This document shows positions 1 to 8,190 of a DNA stretch of 8,190 bases, one piece after another. The translations under genes were made by a program, and so were the position numbers. The stretch comes from a virus. Taxonomy: Duplodnaviria; Heunggongvirae; Uroviricota; Caudoviricetes. Within the stretch, counting starts at the first letter, position 1, and each line of letters opens with the position of its first letter. The notes beneath the pieces are model-generated. The model searched no databases. It saw nothing but the letters and a program-made list of their open reading frames with translations, and was not told where the DNA came from. The stretch lies in IMG/VR virus record IMGVR_UViG_2609459797_000006; one strand, given 5' to 3'.

Positions 1-237
1 CTGTCACCCTTTGACGTGGTGATATGGATGACGGATGGCTGGCCGCTGTATGAATCCCGCCTGAAGGGAAAGCTGCACGTAATCAGCAAGCGATATACGC
101 AGCGAATTGAGCGGCATAACCTGAATCTGAGGCAGCACCTGGCACGGCTGGGACGGAAGTCGCTGTCGTTCTCAAAATCGGTGGAGCTGCATGACAAAGT
201 CATCGGGCATTATCTGAACATAAAACACTATCAATAA
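1..237 (+). CDS. insB: IS1 transposase InsB, C-terminal part (5' end lies outside the window)
   Basis: Open frame runs from nt 1 to the TAA at 235-237; the listed 73-aa ORF (16-237) is only the part after an internal Met. Sequence recognised as InsB. Confidence 0.88.
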
Positions 238-252
238 GTTGGAGTCATTACC
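1..252 (+). mobile_element. IS1 insertion sequence, right-hand ~250 bp (element continues left of the window)
   Basis: Frame 1 from nt 1 reads ...[78 protein letters not shown], which I recognise as the InsB C-terminus. The segment ends with ...CTATCAATAAGTTGGAGTCATTACC (228-252), the reverse complement of the IS1 terminal repeat GGTAATGACTCCAACTTATTGATAG. Recalled from memory, not searched. Confidence 0.88.
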
Positions 253-278
253 CACCTTTTAAAAGAAAAACCCTTTAA

Positions 279-380
279 AGGTGAACAGGTGAATACTTGG
301 TGAACACTTCAATAAAAAGTGTTCACCCCTTAACTATCTGTTAAATAGACGATTTTATCCACGGTGAATAGTGGTGAACA
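279..380. repeat. Iteron-like cluster: six copies of GGTGAAYA / TGTTCACC in both orientations, including a perfect 11-bp inverted repeat GGTGAACACTT-N7-AAGTGTTCACC (299-327); candidate crr/ori-type binding sites for the adjacent helicase/primase
   Basis: Seen directly: GGTGAACA 280-287, GGTGAATA 288-295, GGTGAACA 299-306, TGTTCACC 320-327, GGTGAATA 363-370, GGTGAACA 373-380. From memory, phage P4 ori and crr carry TGTTCACC type I iterons bound by the alpha protein. Confidence 0.6.
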
Positions 381-389
381 CTTTTCCCA

Positions 390-2159
390 TTACTTTTGAT
401 TTTCTCCACTGTTATGAGATGTATCATTCCACATAGGCATCCAGTCTTCTGAGTCGTCGTGAAGCGTGACGTTTGACCTTATGCCATGTTTTGTTTTGCG
501 CTTCTGGTACTCCTTGCCATATTCAGCCATTGCGCCTGGCATATCCGTACCGAACCTCATCAGCGATACCGGCTTGCTCAGACCATTAGCCCGCATATAA
601 GCCAGATAAGCGTGATACAGATAACGGCGCGGGCTGAATGGCACGATCTCGGCATTGCCAATCAGCATTCCATCACAAACCACCGAAGCCATCAGGTAGC
701 CGCAAAAGTCCACCAGTGAATCCCCTTCACGTTTGATGGCCAGCGCTTCTTCTGATTTCTGCTGCTCATGCAAAAGCTGTTTGGCTTCGTCCTGCCTGGA
801 AAAGCGAGTGAGCAGGTGGCGAATGATTACAGCCAGCTCACCTTCAATCTTCTCGGCCAGCATAGGATCGCGTTCGTTTTCCGGTACCACTTCGGAGAAG
901 TTGAAAATCACCCGCCGTCTGGAAACCCCCCCGCTTCTGTCGCTGAACGACATGGCATTGTTATTGACGGCAAGCACCACCGCTGGAATACGGGTTGAAT
1001 ATGGCGCTTTGTGTTTAGGGTCAATGGCTACCTTATCCCCGCCAGTGATAGCTTTAATCCCTGCGCCGTCGCCAGCGTACCGGGTCATATCCGGCATGAT
1101 AATCAGCGAATAGCCCACTACCAGCGCCCTTTCCCTTGGGTTCTCCAGCGCCGCCATGCTCGCTGATACGGTGTTGGCCTTGCCCGCCAGCATCGTGCAG
1201 ATCTCAGCCATAACACTTTTACCACTTCCGCCCGGCCCCGTTACCTCAAGAAACAGCTGCCAGTCGTACCGGTTCGCCAGCACCATAAACAGCGCAGACA
1301 GTACGCGGTCTGCTTTTCGGTCATTATCCGCCACTGAGCGGCGGAGCCATTTCCAGAAGTTCGGCGCATGGGTTGCCAGAGTCTCTCCTTCTGCTGGTTC
1401 GCTGAATGGCAATTCGCTCGCAACGATAAGCCAGTCCTTTTTATCATGCGGTCGAAATTGGCCTAACCGGGTATCAAAAACCCCGTTGCTGAAACCAATA
1501 AGATTTCGGGCTGTATTACCCATCACTGGCAGACCCAGCTTCATTGTATCGACAGCGGATTTAATCGCGTTCTGCGAATAGGCGACTTCGGCATCAATAA
1601 AAATTTGCGCCATTTCCCGCTGTAGCTCTTTATCCGAAAGCGGAACCCACACCACGCCGTTGTAATGATGAACCGTGTCAGAATCAGCATGGATCGCCAG
1701 ATTGCCATCGTAATGAGCAAGCAGAACCTCCCCGCGCTGGCTGGCTCCCATCTGGTTAAGCGCTGGCGTAGCACTACCCCTCGTAGTCACCATTAGGGGC
1801 TCGTCTTCCAAACGCTTCATTAATGGCGTCCAGTCCTCTTTCTCACCTTTTTCGTTGATAAACTCAGCATTGGTAACGCCAGCCTCACACAGCTTATTTG
1901 CAATCATGCTGATTTGGTTTTGCTCGATAAGTCCGGCCTGACAGACACGAGCAAACCGACGGCCTTTATCAACAATGCGCAGGTGTGGCAATTCCGCCAG
2001 TTGGGTGTGATCCAGAACCACAGGTGGAACATCGTCTCCATGCTCGCCCTTGCCTTTCTGGTAATCCTGAGCGGCTTTCCATGCTCCCGTTCCAGCAAAG
2101 ATGATGGCCTCCTCCATTTTGTCGCGCGGGAGGGTTTTCACATTAGGCGCGTTTTTCAT
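390..2159 (-). CDS. P4 alpha-type replication protein (D5_N-like region plus SF3 helicase; phage/plasmid primase P4-family C-terminal domain), 589 aa
   Basis: Long ORF with Walker A motif VTGPGGSGKS, Walker B-like hydrophobic stretch ending in D (SLIIMPD) and overall resemblance to P4 alpha / poxvirus D5-type helicases. ATG start at 2157-2159 preceded by a GGGGG Shine-Dalgarno-like run. The iteron cluster lies just downstream. Family assignment from motif recognition only. Confidence 0.8.
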   Translation of the reverse strand: MKNAPNVKTLPRDKMEEAIIFAGTGAWKAAQDYQKGKGEHGDDVPPVVLDHTQLAELPHLRIVDKGRRFARVCQAGLIEQNQISMIANKLCEAGVTNAEFINEKGEKEDWTPLMKRLEDEPLMVTTRGSATPALNQMGASQRGEVLLAHYDGNLAIHADSDTVHHYNGVVWVPLSDKELQREMAQIFIDAEVAYSQNAIKSAVDTMKLGLPVMGNTARNLIGFSNGVFDTRLGQFRPHDKKDWLIVASELPFSEPAEGETLATHAPNFWKWLRRSVADNDRKADRVLSALFMVLANRYDWQLFLEVTGPGGSGKSVMAEICTMLAGKANTVSASMAALENPRERALVVGYSLIIMPDMTRYAGDGAGIKAITGGDKVAIDPKHKAPYSTRIPAVVLAVNNNAMSFSDRSGGVSRRRVIFNFSEVVPENERDPMLAEKIEGELAVIIRHLLTRFSRQDEAKQLLHEQQKSEEALAIKREGDSLVDFCGYLMASVVCDGMLIGNAEIVPFSPRRYLYHAYLAYMRANGLSKPVSLMRFGTDMPGAMAEYGKEYQKRKTKHGIRSNVTLHDDSEDWMPMWNDTSHNSGENQK

Positions 2160-4289: not shown

Positions 4290-4574
4290 TTAAGCAGATT
4301 TACGGCTGTATGGGTTATTGACGTTCTCTACTGCTGGCGGATTACGAACCCACCAGAGCACATCCGAAAGAAGCCAAGCACAGCTATTGCGGCCAAAGTG
4401 ACAGCGCGGAGGGAAGCGCCCCTGCTGCTCCATCTTCCAGCGGCTGGAACGGGAAAGACTGGTGATCTCGCTGCATTCATCTTCACGGATTCGGCGATCA
4501 AACTTAAAGCCGTACTCTTCTAAAAGGGTGCGGCGCTGTTCAGGATTTGGCGGGGTAAAGGTTATATTTTGCAT
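4290..4574 (-). CDS. AlpA/Vis-family phage regulatory protein (MerR-type HTH; transcriptional activator/excision regulator), 94 aa
   Basis: GGAGG Shine-Dalgarno 5-6 nt before the ATG at 4572-4574. Region ...SEITSLSRSSRWKMEQQGRFPPRCHFGRNSCAWLLSDVLWWVRN matches the AlpA pattern (LSRST-Y...G-FP....G...W...-V--W). The family includes E. coli CP4-57 AlpA and P4 Vis, recalled from memory. Confidence 0.75.
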   Translation of the reverse strand: MQNITFTPPNPEQRRTLLEEYGFKFDRRIREDECSEITSLSRSSRWKMEQQGRFPPRCHFGRNSCAWLLSDVLWWVRNPPAVENVNNPYSRKSA

Positions 4575-4623
4575 GCTGCCTCCACTGTTTCAATGTTATG
4601 CGAAGAGATTAGTGGATAAACGA

Positions 4624-4699
4624 CCAGAATTTCCATTGATTCTGGAATCCTTTAAAAGAACATGCAATTCCATTGAAAGATAGAAATTCCATCAAGATA
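4624..4699. promoter_or_regulatory. Repeat motifs upstream of the alpA-like gene: inverted repeat CCAGAAT-N8-ATTCTGG and three copies of TTCCATYRA
   Basis: Seen directly: CCAGAAT 4624-4630 / ATTCTGG 4639-4645; TTCCATTGA 4631-4639 and 4668-4676; TTCCATCAA 4691-4699. Lie 50-125 bp upstream of the alpA-like start. Function inferred. Confidence 0.35.
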
Positions 4700-4830
4700 A
4701 CGCTCCCCTGTTTAAAACAGTTTCCACAGTAATTTCAACGGCTGTCTCGAGAGAAAAAATCATGAATTTCAATAACTCGCCGAAGATCACCGTTCTTTAA
4801 CGATTTGATTCACCTTGGATTGTTCATAAC

Positions 4831-5030
4831 AAAGATGAACAATGATGAACGCTGATGAACAGTGATGAATAACCATGAACAAAGATGGAAAAAGTTAGCA
4901 AGTAATGACCTAGTAGGGACCGTGGATGGAGCTAGGTATTGTTAGGTGCTGTCGGGTGCCGTTACGTGTCATAACGTGTCATTACGTGTCGTTGAATGCT
5001 GTTGAATGCTGTTGAATGCTGTTGAATGTA
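4831..5030. repeat. Array of twenty phased 10-bp tandem repeat units in successive sub-families (ATGAAC-type x6, GGTGCT-type x3, TTACGTGTC x3, GTTGAATGCT x4), followed by very AT-rich DNA (5031-5164); candidate replication origin or protein-binding array
   Basis: Seen directly: 4831-4890 aaagatgaac/aatgatgaac/gctgatgaac/agtgatgaat/aaccatgaac/aaagatggaa; 4931-4960 gctaggtatt/gttaggtgct/gtcgggtgcc; 4961-4990 gttacgtgtc/ataacgtgtc/attacgtgtc; 4991-5030 gttgaatgct x3 then gttgaatgta. Strict 10-bp register throughout. No ORF present. Confidence 0.8.
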
Positions 5031-5164
5031 ACGGTAATACACATCAAATATAACAATTGAATCTCCTTGGCGATCATAGAATCGCCAAAAGCTCCAACAA
5101 ATATAATTAATTAGTATTTTCACATGAAATATAAATAATACCTACTAACACTGCAAAATAATAT

Positions 5165-5815
5165 TCATTCCGTATAATAAATCGAATTTAATGCCTTTCG
5201 AATTTTCTCATATATTGCTGATTTAGATAATCCAGTTTTAGATATACCTTCCTCATCAGCTAATTTATATAGTTCGTTTAAAATAGCCGAGATGCTTGGT
5301 TTTTTAGAGGTGCCAAACGAATGGCCTATCTTATGTGCTATAAGCTTGACCAGCATCCCCATTAATTTATCATTATATTCCTTTTCATCTTCTTTACGAT
5401 GCAAGCCGCGTTTGCTGCTTTTCAATGCAATTCCGACCTGTAAAAGCTCATCCCCTCCCATAGCATAAAGATGCTCTTTTCCTTTGTTTTGATTAGCAAT
5501 TATAGCCACCGCCGCAAGGCATCTGTCCTTTATGGGTTGTGGTGTAATATCTTCATCAATAAGAGGATATGCCAGAGCAAACATATAGTCTGCGGGATAG
5601 GCTGTTGAGTTTCCACCTCGAAATAATTTAGATGCTGATAACCATCTACTCAGTTGTCGATAGTATATATTGTAAGCTTCAACTTTCGCTTCAGGGATAT
5701 CAGCAGTTTTAACTGTCGGATCTACCCCACACATAAGTAGTGCAAGTTGTTTAATATTTAGCTCCGGGGCTTTGGCTTCTCGCTCGAAAATACCCAATTT
5801 TAGAAAACTAGTCAT
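5165..5815 (-). CDS. Hypothetical protein, 216 aa, AT-rich, translationally coupled to the integrase (TAATG overlap); possible C-terminal HTH
   Basis: ATG at 5813-5815 overlaps the integrase stop TAA (5815-5817). Base composition visibly more AT-rich than flanking genes. C-terminal segment ISKTGLSKSAIYEKIRKA resembles a helix-turn-helix. No known family recognised. Confidence 0.7.
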   Translation of the reverse strand: MTSFLKLGIFEREAKAPELNIKQLALLMCGVDPTVKTADIPEAKVEAYNIYYRQLSRWLSASKLFRGGNSTAYPADYMFALAYPLIDEDITPQPIKDRCLAAVAIIANQNKGKEHLYAMGGDELLQVGIALKSSKRGLHRKEDEKEYNDKLMGMLVKLIAHKIGHSFGTSKKPSISAILNELYKLADEEGISKTGLSKSAIYEKIRKALNSIYYTE

Positions 5816-7035
5816 TATTCAGCCTTATTCAACAAAACAATGTTAGTGAATCCACCTGATAAAATATCAAGTCTGTCATACCATTTATTCAACGCATCCA
5901 GTTTCTCAGGCAAGTACAGACTACGGTTATAAATCGCCATGACTCCCGGCATTGAGTGCCCCAGCAACTGTTCGACAACGTGTGGTGCTATACCCATATT
6001 ATTCATATGCGTTGCTAAAGTTCGTCTTAGATCGTGCAGTGTCCATGGTTCAGAATGCCCTAGCTTTTTATAAACGCCGCGGCCCCACTGACTTACCGCT
6101 TCACTGCCTTTAACCGACCCAAGCAAAAGGCCGGATCGTTTCGTTTCATCATGCAGTATTTCAATGAATTTGCGCATGGCATCCGGCACAGGTCTTACAA
6201 TCTTCTCGCCACCCTTGCTGTGCTCTTTGGGAACTGTCCAGACCCAGGCATCCATATCCCATTCACTCCACTCTGATAGCCTGGCCTCCTGCGTTCGGCA
6301 CCCAAACACTATTAAGATTGTCAGTAGCCTGGTGTAGTAAGGCATGAAGCAAGTGCCAGAGGAAATGGCAGCCCATAAATCGCCAGCCTCTTTATCGTTT
6401 AATACCCGGTCTTTTTTTGCCTGTTTTTTACCGACATCTGGAATTGTTAAATCTTCAAGCGCGGTACTCACAGCATAGCGACGAACCCGGCAGAATTTCA
6501 GGGCTTGTTTGCACATCTGGAACACATAACCTGCGGCGACTGGAGTTTTCTTTTTCATCCTGTCAAAGCAGTCAAGCCAGTATCGTGTTTCACAGTCAGC
6601 GAGCGCCATTTTCCCTATATAAGGATAAATGTGTTTTCGCAGCTCCGCTTTGTGCCGTTCAACATTCGCGCGGTTCTCTTCTGCATATTCGCGTATCCAG
6701 TATTCTATAGCTTCCTTAACAGTGACCGGTTTAAGGGTTTCCTGAGTAGTCAACGCCAACTGGTGCTTTGGATCTTTACCTGAGGCCAGCCACTGGCGGC
6801 ATTTATCACGCGATGAACGGGCTTCTTTGAGGCTCATATCCGGGTATCGTCCCAGAGTCAGACGATGCAGCTTCTGCCCGTCAAGTCGGTAAGTAAACAC
6901 CCAGCTAATACCACCAGCTTTAGTTACCTTGGCGCTCAGCCCGGCACCATCAGCATAGAACTCAATCTTACTGGCCGGGATACCATGTAATCCCTTTAAC
7001 TTCCTGTCGCTCAGTTTGTTAAGTTCCCCAGCCAT
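5815..7035 (-). CDS. int: P4-type tyrosine integrase (site-specific recombinase), 406 aa
   Basis: N-terminal segment (SDRKLKGL...KIEFYADGAGLSAKVTKAGGISWVFTYRLDGQKLHRLTLGRYPDMSLKEAR) matches the P4-integrase arm-binding domain pattern. C-terminal region carries HDLRRT (His-x-x-Arg) and GHSMPGVMAIYNRS (catalytic Tyr). ATG at 7033-7035. Confidence 0.9.
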   Translation of the reverse strand: MAGELNKLSDRKLKGLHGIPASKIEFYADGAGLSAKVTKAGGISWVFTYRLDGQKLHRLTLGRYPDMSLKEARSSRDKCRQWLASGKDPKHQLALTTQETLKPVTVKEAIEYWIREYAEENRANVERHKAELRKHIYPYIGKMALADCETRYWLDCFDRMKKKTPVAAGYVFQMCKQALKFCRVRRYAVSTALEDLTIPDVGKKQAKKDRVLNDKEAGDLWAAISSGTCFMPYYTRLLTILIVFGCRTQEARLSEWSEWDMDAWVWTVPKEHSKGGEKIVRPVPDAMRKFIEILHDETKRSGLLLGSVKGSEAVSQWGRGVYKKLGHSEPWTLHDLRRTLATHMNNMGIAPHVVEQLLGHSMPGVMAIYNRSLYLPEKLDALNKWYDRLDILSGGFTNIVLLNKAE

Positions 7036-7053
7036 AGACCACCCAGCCCAAAG

Positions 7054-7142
7054 TGTTTATACAAATGTTTATACAGAATTGCTTGCATAATAGCATAAAC
7101 AAAGAAAAACACTGGAACAATATACAGGCATGAATTTATACA
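7054..7142. promoter_or_regulatory. Integrase upstream region with direct repeats TGTTTATACA (7054-7063, 7066-7075) plus TATACAG (7121-7127) and TTTATACA (7135-7142); candidate int promoter elements and/or arm-type Int-binding sites
   Basis: Repeats seen directly. On the minus strand they read TGTATAAAC, resembling extended -10 elements 20-40 bp upstream of the int start. Their position between int and the element end is where P4-type arm sites are expected. Function inferred. Confidence 0.4.
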
Positions 7143-7281: not shown

Positions 7282-7305
7282 ATAGGTGTCACAAAGGGAG
7301 TGACC

Positions 7306-8190
7306 ATGAGAACAGGATGTGAACCGACCCGGTTTGGTAATGAAGCTAAGACCATTATTCACGGTGATGCCCTTGCCGAACTTAAAAAGCTACCTACTGA
7401 AAGCGTCGATCTGATCTTTGCCGACCCACCGTATAACATCGGTAAAAATTTTGATGGTCTGATCGAAGCCTGGAAAGAAGATCTGTTTATCGACTGGCTG
7501 TTTGAAGTGATTGCAGAGTGCCACCGCGTTCTGAAAAAGCAGGGCAGCATGTACATTATGAACAGTACGGAAAACATGCCCTTTATCGATCTCCAGTGCC
7601 GCAAGCTTTTTACCATCAAAAGTCGCATCGTCTGGTCATATGACAGTTCTGGAGTACAGGCGAAAAAACACTACGGCTCCATGTACGAACCCATCCTGAT
7701 GATGGTGAAAGACGCAAAGAACTACACATTCAACGGTGATGCTATTCTGGTAGAAGCCAAAACCGGATCGCAGCGCGCGTTGATCGATTATCGCAAAAAT
7801 CCTCCACAGCCATACAATCATCAAAAAGTACCGGGTAACGTCTGGGATTTTCCGCGCGTGCGTTATTTAATGGATGAATATGAGAACCACCCGACGCAAA
7901 AACCGGAAGCCTTACTGAAACGCATTATTCTCGCCTCTTCCAACCCAGGCGATATCGTTCTCGACCCGTTTGCCGGTAGCTTTACTACCGGTGCCGTAGC
8001 CATCGCCAGCGGACGAAAATTCATTGGTATTGAGATCAACAGCGAGTACATCAAAATGGGGCTTCGACGGCTGGATGTCGCGTCGCATTACTCCGCGGAA
8101 GAACTGGCGAAAGTGAAAAAAAGAAAGACGGGCAACCGGTCAAAACGATGCCGGGTTAGCGAAGTTGACCCCGATCTCATTGCAAAGTAA
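7306..8190 (+). CDS. yhdJ: DNA adenine (N6) methyltransferase YhdJ, 294 aa
   Basis: Sequence MRTGCEPTRFGNEAKTIIHGDALAELKK...DLIFADPPYNIGKNF...LDPFAGSFTTG recognised as E. coli YhdJ, with DPPY catalytic motif and SAM-binding motif in beta-class order. ATG at 7306 with AGGGAG Shine-Dalgarno preferred over the GTG at 7300 listed in the ORF track; TAA at 8188-8190. Confidence 0.85.
   Translation: MRTGCEPTRFGNEAKTIIHGDALAELKKLPTESVDLIFADPPYNIGKNFDGLIEAWKEDLFIDWLFEVIAECHRVLKKQGSMYIMNSTENMPFIDLQCRKLFTIKSRIVWSYDSSGVQAKKHYGSMYEPILMMVKDAKNYTFNGDAILVEAKTGSQRALIDYRKNPPQPYNHQKVPGNVWDFPRVRYLMDEYENHPTQKPEALLKRIILASSNPGDIVLDPFAGSFTTGAVAIASGRKFIGIEINSEYIKMGLRRLDVASHYSAEELAKVKKRKTGNRSKRCRVSEVDPDLIAK

Follow-up and report, generated by a model that had tools for sequence, protein, structure and literature searches.

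The iteron cluster 3′ of rep as the probable rep-proximal half of an IS1-split replication origin in a capsid-forming phage-inducible chromosomal island

What is the function of a dense cluster of short repeats that directly adjoins the replication gene of an integrated element? The stretch of DNA analyzed here (8,190 nucleotides, IMG/VR record IMGVR_UViG_2609459797_000006, hereafter the window) carries such a cluster at positions 253–389, immediately 3′ of the gene for a 589-aa replication protein, Rep. We conclude that a capsid-forming phage-inducible chromosomal island (cf-PICI), located between fis and yhdJ, very probably uses 253–389 as one half of its vegetative replication origin, namely the half proximal to rep. 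An initial annotation had described the region as a crr/ori-like cluster of six octamers with an 11-bp perfect inverted repeat, lying 3′ of a helicase/primase gene, and had paired it with ATGAACA repeats ~4.5 kb away in a bipartite system like that of satellite P4.

The iteron cluster and its probable initiator

A recount confirmed both the six octamers and the inverted repeat. GGTGAAYA has six exact matches in the window, all within 253–389 (between 280 and 380), against a whole-window expectation of 0.51; six copies were reached in none of 200 dinucleotide-preserving shuffles. For six octamers in the 137-bp region alone, the Poisson probability calculated from base composition is ~5e-16. The elements of the cluster and the adjoining gene are as follows.

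280–287, 288–295 and 299–306, plus strand: three direct iterons, GGTGAACA, GGTGAATA and GGTGAACA, aligning with P4 type 1 repeats 9310, 9320 and 9331
320–327, minus strand: inverted iteron, read on the plus strand as TGTTCACC, aligning with P4 type 1 repeat 9353 (minus)
328–362, no strand: AT-rich spacer of 35 bp, 69% AT versus 52% for the window, with the same length across relatives
363–370 and 373–380, plus strand: two direct iterons adjoining the rep stop codon, GGTGAATA and GGTGAACA, aligning with P4 9396 and 9406
390–2159, minus strand: rep, 589 aa, with an N-terminal domain (aa 1–133), D5_N, a superfamily 3 (SF3) helicase core (DUF5906) and a C-terminal Pox_D5/winged-helix origin-binding domain
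435–725, minus strand: coding region of the Rep origin-binding domain (aa 479–575), which matches 1KA8 and whose wing (aa ~541–570) varies with iteron type

The inverted repeat, GGTGAACACTT (299–309) and AAGTGTTCACC (317–327), consists of the third direct iteron paired with the inverted iteron, and the match extends into the flanks. Iterons thus stand on both sides of the AT-rich spacer, which is the proposed melting site and holds a conserved CCnTTAAC...CTGT motif beside the inverted iteron. The right limit of the cluster is the stop codon (390–392) of the Rep open reading frame (ORF).

Several other readings of this DNA were rejected. The inverted repeat was discounted as a terminator or promoter, as no terminator-like or promoter-like consensus site was found in 150–600, and a structured RNA or tRNA was discounted as the window has no Rfam or tRNA matches. 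The sequence TTATCCACG at 355–363, inside the AT-rich spacer, matches the DnaA box consensus TTATCCACA at eight of nine positions, probably by chance, because neither close relatives nor P4 preserve the match. Finally, CCTTTAAAG-like motifs at 253–279 loosely resemble the P4 type 2 repeats and are not kept in origins of the type found in an Enterobacter hormaechei island (L016).

The octamer is the type 1 iteron of P4, as the initial annotation had stated. In P4, ori1 is the start site of replication and crr is not a start site but is required in cis. In the reference used for comparison (GenBank NC_001609, 'ori type 1 repeat' annotations), the ori repeats are found at 9310, 9320 and 9331 (plus strand, as GGTGAACA), 9353 (inverted), 9396 and 9406, and further type 1 copies are annotated in two 120-bp crr repeats directly 3′ of alpha, with the note 'cis required region'. 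The window has six TGTTCACC/GGTGAACA-type copies, two of them in the form GGTGAATA, a point in which it differs from P4 ori1. Comparison with both P4 sites showed that the cluster follows ori1 in order, orientation and spacing, i.e., three direct iterons, one inverted, an AT-rich spacer and two direct. Start-to-start distances are 8, 11, 21, 43 and 10 in the window versus 10, 11, 22, 43 and 10 in P4 ori, and the equivalent P4 spacer (9361–9395, 83% AT) is likewise ~35 bp. The two align base for base, TGTTCACCCyTTAACTnnCTGT included, and the flank of the inverted iteron is alignable as well (TGTTCACCCCTTAACTATCTGT in the window, TGTTCACCCTTTAACTTACTGT in P4). The orientation relative to the replication gene is also the same. 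The arrangement of a crr unit (two adjacent iterons, ~44 bp, then oppositely oriented iterons, within 120 bp) was not found in the cluster. From the matching architecture and the alignment, it follows that the P4 homologue of the cluster is ori1 and not crr, even though the cluster occupies the position of crr. Of the label crr/ori-like, origin DNA 3′ of rep therefore stands and the crr part does not.

The kinship of the replication gene with P4 alpha was borne out as well. Rep aa 134–579 are 51.5% identical to P4 alpha aa ~327–773, and aa 479–575 match 1KA8, the crystallized origin-binding winged-helix domain of P4 alpha, with E=2.2e-25. The cluster is thus accompanied by a cognate initiator with a P4 alpha-type origin-binding domain. 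The helicase half of the helicase/primase description is retained, whereas the Zn-ribbon/Toprim primase part of P4 alpha is replaced by 133 unrelated N-terminal residues. Domain searches assigned no family to aa 1–133, and a structural model of this domain (pLDDT 77.6) resembled known folds only weakly and non-specifically, with Toprim-containing primases included in the matches. No recognizable primase domain was found in Rep. The gene is not demonstrably a primase gene; judged from its domains, what is annotated as 'DNA primase' appears to be the initiator helicase of the island.

The probable origin in its intact form and its interruption by IS1

To the left, the cluster is bounded by an insertion sequence (IS).

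1–252, plus strand: right end of IS1, with the InsB C-terminal ORF at 16–237 and the terminal inverted repeat ending in ...GGAGTCATTACC at 252
253–261, no strand: 9-bp target-site duplication CACCTTTTA, overlapping the degenerate iteron CTTCACC of the intact origin

Since 1–252 is the end of IS1, the left limit at 253 is an insertion junction and not a natural boundary. Sequences that match the IS1 part, annotated as 'IS1 family transposase', occur at thousands of places in E. coli genomes. A protein identical to the window Rep is present in intact cf-PICIs, and one of these islands (L034) is identical to the window over the aligned stretch 253–420 and diverges into IS1 at 252. The intact island reads ...AACCCTTCACCTTTTAAAAG at the site where the window reads ...CATTACC and then, across the junction, CACCTTTTAAAAG. 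The other junction was recovered by a pattern scan on contig L060, where ...TATTCACCCTAACCCTTCACCTTTTA, also given as ...CCCTTCACCTTTTA, is followed by GGTGATGCTGCC, the IS1 left end. The two junctions together identify a simple IS1 insertion with a 9-bp duplication of CACCTTTTA. The same IS1 junction is present at a contig end in a further island (L038; GCA_000700585.1, JNNC01000090), which was found by exact protein look-up and carries PF03400 DDE_Tnp_IS1 at that junction.

Intact islands show what the window has lost from view. Islands with an identical Rep (L034–L037, L039 and L040) hold two origin units 3′ of rep, of which the proximal one is ori1-like, as in the window. The distal unit (seen in L034, L002, L004 and L060) consists of CTTCACC-TGTTCACC, ~44 bp, GGGTGAA and then TATTCAC/TGTTCACC copies, and it aligns with the P4 crr repeat (TGTTCAC-CTGTTCACCTTT...TTCA...GGGTGAA...TTCACC). 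IS1 sits between the rep-proximal and distal halves, which are now ~0.78 kb apart, and the island that contains it is otherwise complete. Because 253–420 is identical to the intact islands and Rep is 100% identical to theirs, the insertion appears to be recent. By accident, it recreates a P4-like split origin.

An independent insertion, of IS903B, was found in the same origin of a different phage-inducible chromosomal island (PICI) in E. coli Iso00041 (L007, 7053–8180), where it separates two rep-proximal iterons from the remaining iterons. Insertion sequences seem to hit the AT-rich origins of these islands repeatedly.

To examine how general this origin is, ~35 related islands from >15 genera were compared: six from E. 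coli (L002–L007), 26 from other Enterobacterales and metagenome-assembled genomes (L008–L033), and EcCICFT073 (L059). Each island has exactly one Rep-type iteron cluster, always directly 3′ of rep, as in the window. The shared order is << -43- > -21- <<< -44- >> < -44- >>: counted from the rep stop, a pair of direct iterons is followed after ~43 bp by one or two inverted iterons, after a further ~21 bp by two or three direct ones, and after another ~44 bp by the second unit. In the GGTGAACA group, iteron columns are 93% identical, versus 70.5% for spacer and remaining columns (Mann-Whitney p=9e-11). The AT-rich spacer is kept in length across relatives and not in sequence.

The iteron core differs by lineage, and the β-hairpin wing of the Rep origin-binding domain differs in parallel.

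Core GGTGAACA: window, P4, L008–14, L017, L018, L020, L024, L025; wing KRKTKHGIRSN (P4: KRHTKQGIQTN)
Core GGTAGACA: L015, L016, L019, L027, L029; wing KRKQCTRGPDKGRTISN
Core GGTGGAGA: L021, L022, L032; wing RKKSTKGNMRSN
Core GGTGGACA: L028; wing KERATRGPSKGNYQSN
Core GGCGGACA: L023, L026; wing KKAESKKKATRGRIQSN
Core GGTAGATA: L030, L031; wing TRTIKGRRQTN

L020 gives no wing: its origin is of the GGTGAACA type, but its Rep differs from the rest of the group in the C-terminal part. A natural swap is provided by the window and the E. hormaechei island L016. The two Reps are 90–100% identical over aa 150–480 and only 57% identical over aa 541–570, with GGTGAACA iterons in the window and GGTAGACA iterons in L016. 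These lineage-specific iteron/wing pairs, and the window/L016 pair in particular, offer a simple route to testing initiator-origin recognition. The same pairs are relevant to the question of why satellites sharing a host do not replicate one another.

A working model can be drawn by analogy with P4 alpha, on which Ziegelin and colleagues reportedly worked, and with the Rep proteins of Staphylococcus aureus pathogenicity islands (SaPIs) and PICIs. The six octamers are predicted to be the sites that the island's own Rep binds with its C-terminal winged-helix domain. After induction by a helper phage, Rep would bind the iterons on both sides of the 35-bp spacer, assemble as a hexamer, melt 328–362 and load itself as the replicative SF3 helicase. 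The crr-like half probably stimulates this process through DNA loops formed by Rep, in the manner envisaged for ori1 and crr of P4. Because a P4-type Zn-ribbon/Toprim primase domain is absent, priming is probably carried out by host DnaG or another activity. The split origin may still fire. The IS1 allele is a ready-made natural experiment on the tolerance for distance between origin halves; if the island replicates, Rep must bridge the halves by looping, as has been proposed for P4 alpha with ori1 and crr.

Alternative explanations

In a P4-style bipartite replicon as proposed by the initial annotation, 253–389 would be crr-like and the ATGAACA repeats would be a diverged second Rep site or the true initiation site. 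The array itself exists.

4828–4887: (GATGAACAnn)x6, with a 10-bp period

Its unit, GATGAACA, is one mismatch off the iteron, and this variant iteron is found in the true origins of L006, L013 and L025. The array is phased at 10 bp like direct iterons, lies 260 bp upstream of alpA, where P4 ori1 lies 280 bp upstream of vis, and gives a marginal local alignment with the P4 direct iterons (78% over 32 nt, E=0.039). A role as second cis site is nevertheless unsupported. The real crr homologue adjoins the ori1-like unit in intact islands and lies just beyond IS1 here. All other islands of the sample lack a remote iteron cluster; ori1 and crr form distant clusters in the true P4-like elements, i.e., P4 and an Erwinia rhapontici element with an 813-aa alpha (L033). 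Of 5426 complete E. coli genomes, 673 contain the window origin type and six the array region; 667 of the 673 lack the array.

The neighborhood of the array points in the same direction. Two unrelated 10-bp arrays, ACGTGTCATW x2.7 and GTTGAATGCT x3.8, follow directly (all three within 4828–5028). Together the arrays lie 254–450 bp upstream of alpA and vary from 0 to 9 copies among islands that are otherwise ~99% identical. The module int-orf216-arrays-alpA occurs alongside Reps of both the GGTGAACA and the GGTAGACA type (the latter in L016, L041, L045 and L056), and the same int-alpA module accompanies replication modules without an alpha-like Rep (L042, L049, L050, L052, L053 and L057). In nearly all islands with swapped replication modules, the GATGAACA array is essentially unchanged. 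Because the module travels irrespective of Rep type, the array is rare and remote clusters are missing elsewhere, we assign the ATGAACA arrays to the int-alpA module and reject them as a cognate partner for the window origin. The swaps are recent (~99% identity), so retention alone is no proof against function, and Rep might still bind the arrays weakly. Overall, a bipartite replicon of this kind has little chance of being the correct explanation. The annotation can thus be set right: the cluster is the cf-PICI origin and the far repeats lie outside the replicon.

The arrays may instead be binding sites for AlpA, orf216, orf230 or a helper-phage factor. The idea that the three 10-bp arrays are decoy iterons for other Rep families was rejected, as outside the arrays their units form no clusters in islands with other replication modules. 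Between the alpA start and the arrays (4625–4700), the window also contains three or four copies of AATTCCAT-type motifs (GAATTTCCATTGA, GGAATCC, GCAATTCCATTGA and GAAATTCCATCAA), which may serve as operators in the promoter region of alpA.

A second possibility is that the iterons act mainly in regulation or copy control, for instance through Rep-mediated handcuffing or by forming a roadblock that separates the rep operon from the packaging genes downstream. Such a role would fit with P4 crr, which is needed in cis while not being the start site, and in intact islands the cluster does lie between two co-directional gene blocks. However, the architecture is that of ori1, the start site, and not of crr, an AT-rich spacer of constant length is conserved, and 150–600 is devoid of terminator-like and promoter-like sites. 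Moreover, the rep-ori segment of EcCICFT073 replicated a thermosensitive plasmid, and this ability was lost without rep and reduced without ori (Fillol-Salom et al., 2018, PMC6092414). The chance that regulation is the main role is therefore very slight.

Three points weigh against a functional origin half with its own initiator. First, the origin is split in the window genome and P4 needs both ori1 and crr in cis, which makes the function of the interrupted origin uncertain. Second, the equivalent of the inverted iteron at 320–327 reads TGTTCCCC in place of TGTTCACC in L038, the other island with this IS1 junction, which may indicate that constraint on the split origin has begun to relax. Third, the co-variation of iterons and wings is not one to one, since GGTAGAYA iterons occur with two different wing types. 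That IS1 killed the origin and the cluster is a decaying, non-functional remnant is nonetheless barely tenable: the split, the mutated sister allele and the IS903B case, which shows that such insertions occur, are compatible with it, but the identity of 253–420 and of Rep to their intact counterparts indicates a recent insertion, and P4 ori1 and crr, 4.7 kb apart by GenBank coordinates, function together at that separation, so a 0.78-kb gap need not be fatal. An origin half served by the adjacent rep gene thus remains the preferred explanation.

The island and its comparison with known systems

From left to right, the window contains the IS1 end, the iterons, rep, a DUF4222 gene, small ORFs (one of them Icd-like), a 230-aa ORF, alpA, a spacer, a 216-aa ORF, the integrase gene and yhdJ. 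The features beyond the replication module are the following.

4290–4574, minus strand: alpA
4575–5164: 590-bp spacer with the tandem arrays
5165–5815, minus strand: 216-aa ORF (phrog_30524)
5815–7035, minus strand: tyrosine integrase
7300–8190, plus strand: yhdJ, host gene

The 216-aa ORF is 98–100% conserved across islands from several genera and gives faint metallopeptidase-like matches at aa ~150–190 (Peptidase_M10, E=0.033). Beside the int start, on the yhdJ side, CAAAGTGTTTATA/TGTTTATACA repeats are present (7049–7075). They also occur on the fis side in intact copies (L002, 2792–2814 and 18781–18807), and they are probably attachment-site (att) or integrase-arm repeats.

We considered as cf-PICIs islands that have int, alpA and rep together with their own capsid, protease, portal, connector, HNH and terminase genes and that lack tail genes. 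The window holds int, alpA and rep, and the packaging module is found in four islands with an identical Rep (L034–L037) and on the contig with the other IS1 junction (L060). Intact relatives are integrated between fis and yhdJ, and beyond the origin they encode capsid, protease, portal, head-closure, connector, HNH, TerS and TerL proteins. The island is thus a cf-PICI, related to PICIKp1 and PICIEc1, and not a P4-like satellite. In Moura de Sousa and Rocha (2021, PMC8628076), P4-like satellites have a core of psu, delta, sid and epsilon in addition to alpA, alpha and int. No homologues of psu, sid, delta or epsilon were found in the window or in intact copies, which places the island outside the P4-like satellites in this sense; what it has in common with them is limited to int, alpA and an alpha-like helicase.

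The same island type is present in K. pneumoniae ATCC 13883, which we take to be the same strain as DSM30104. Its Rep is 98% identical to that of the window, its origin is the same, and its int, orf216 and alpA are 99.5–100% identical. The DSM30104 island is KpCIDSM30104 (PICIKp1), and cf-PICIs are stated to replicate like classical PICIs, with the origin not described (bioRxiv 10.1101/2025.02.19.639094). The window copy differs from PICIKp1 and PICIEc1 by the IS1 inside its origin.

The comparison with P4 shows both kinship and rearrangement. The octamer (GGTGAACA/TGTTCACC), the near-identical spacing, the flank CCyTTAACT..CTGT and the initiators, with their homologous SF3 helicase and 1KA8-type winged-helix domains, are shared. 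The location is different: P4 ori1 lies 2.3 kb upstream of alpha, beyond vis and remote from a separate crr, whereas the window unit abuts the rep stop codon and intact islands have the crr-like unit contiguous with it. P4 also has three 10-bp type 2 repeats nearby, for which the window has no clear counterparts, and its alpha carries the primase domain that Rep lacks. With crr, the window cluster shares the octamer and the position immediately 3′ of the replication gene, but it is not a crr unit; the crr-like unit of the island family is single instead of duplicated and lies beyond IS1 in the window genome.

The layout is shared with PICI origins. As in SaPI-type origins and EcCICFT073, the origin lies immediately 3′ of rep, iteron sets flank an AT-rich region, and the island is organized as int-alpA-...-rep-ori. 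The Rep of EcCICFT073 is 41% identical to that of the window over its full length, with the same N-terminal domain and domain layout, and the order and spacing of its iterons are those of the window family. The plasmid replication obtained with its rep-ori segment therefore serves as the experimental anchor for reading the window cluster as an origin half. It differs in its iteron core, GGTAGA(C/T)A instead of GGTGAACA, and in its DNA-binding wing; conversely, the window island is capsid-forming and its origin is interrupted by IS1.

The classical P4 ori1 and crr are thereby linked at the sequence level to contiguous PICI origins, which suggests that in an ancestral origin the two P4 sites formed the halves of a single unit. 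We tentatively propose, while remaining slightly doubtful of the combination, that the two-site origin of P4 arose from a single contiguous origin that was kept in PICIs and cf-PICIs, that the IS1 allele re-enacts this split, and that the wing at aa ~541–570 is a swappable specificity determinant. The origin half in the window is a well-supported addition to the known PICI origins and to the P4 ori1 type.
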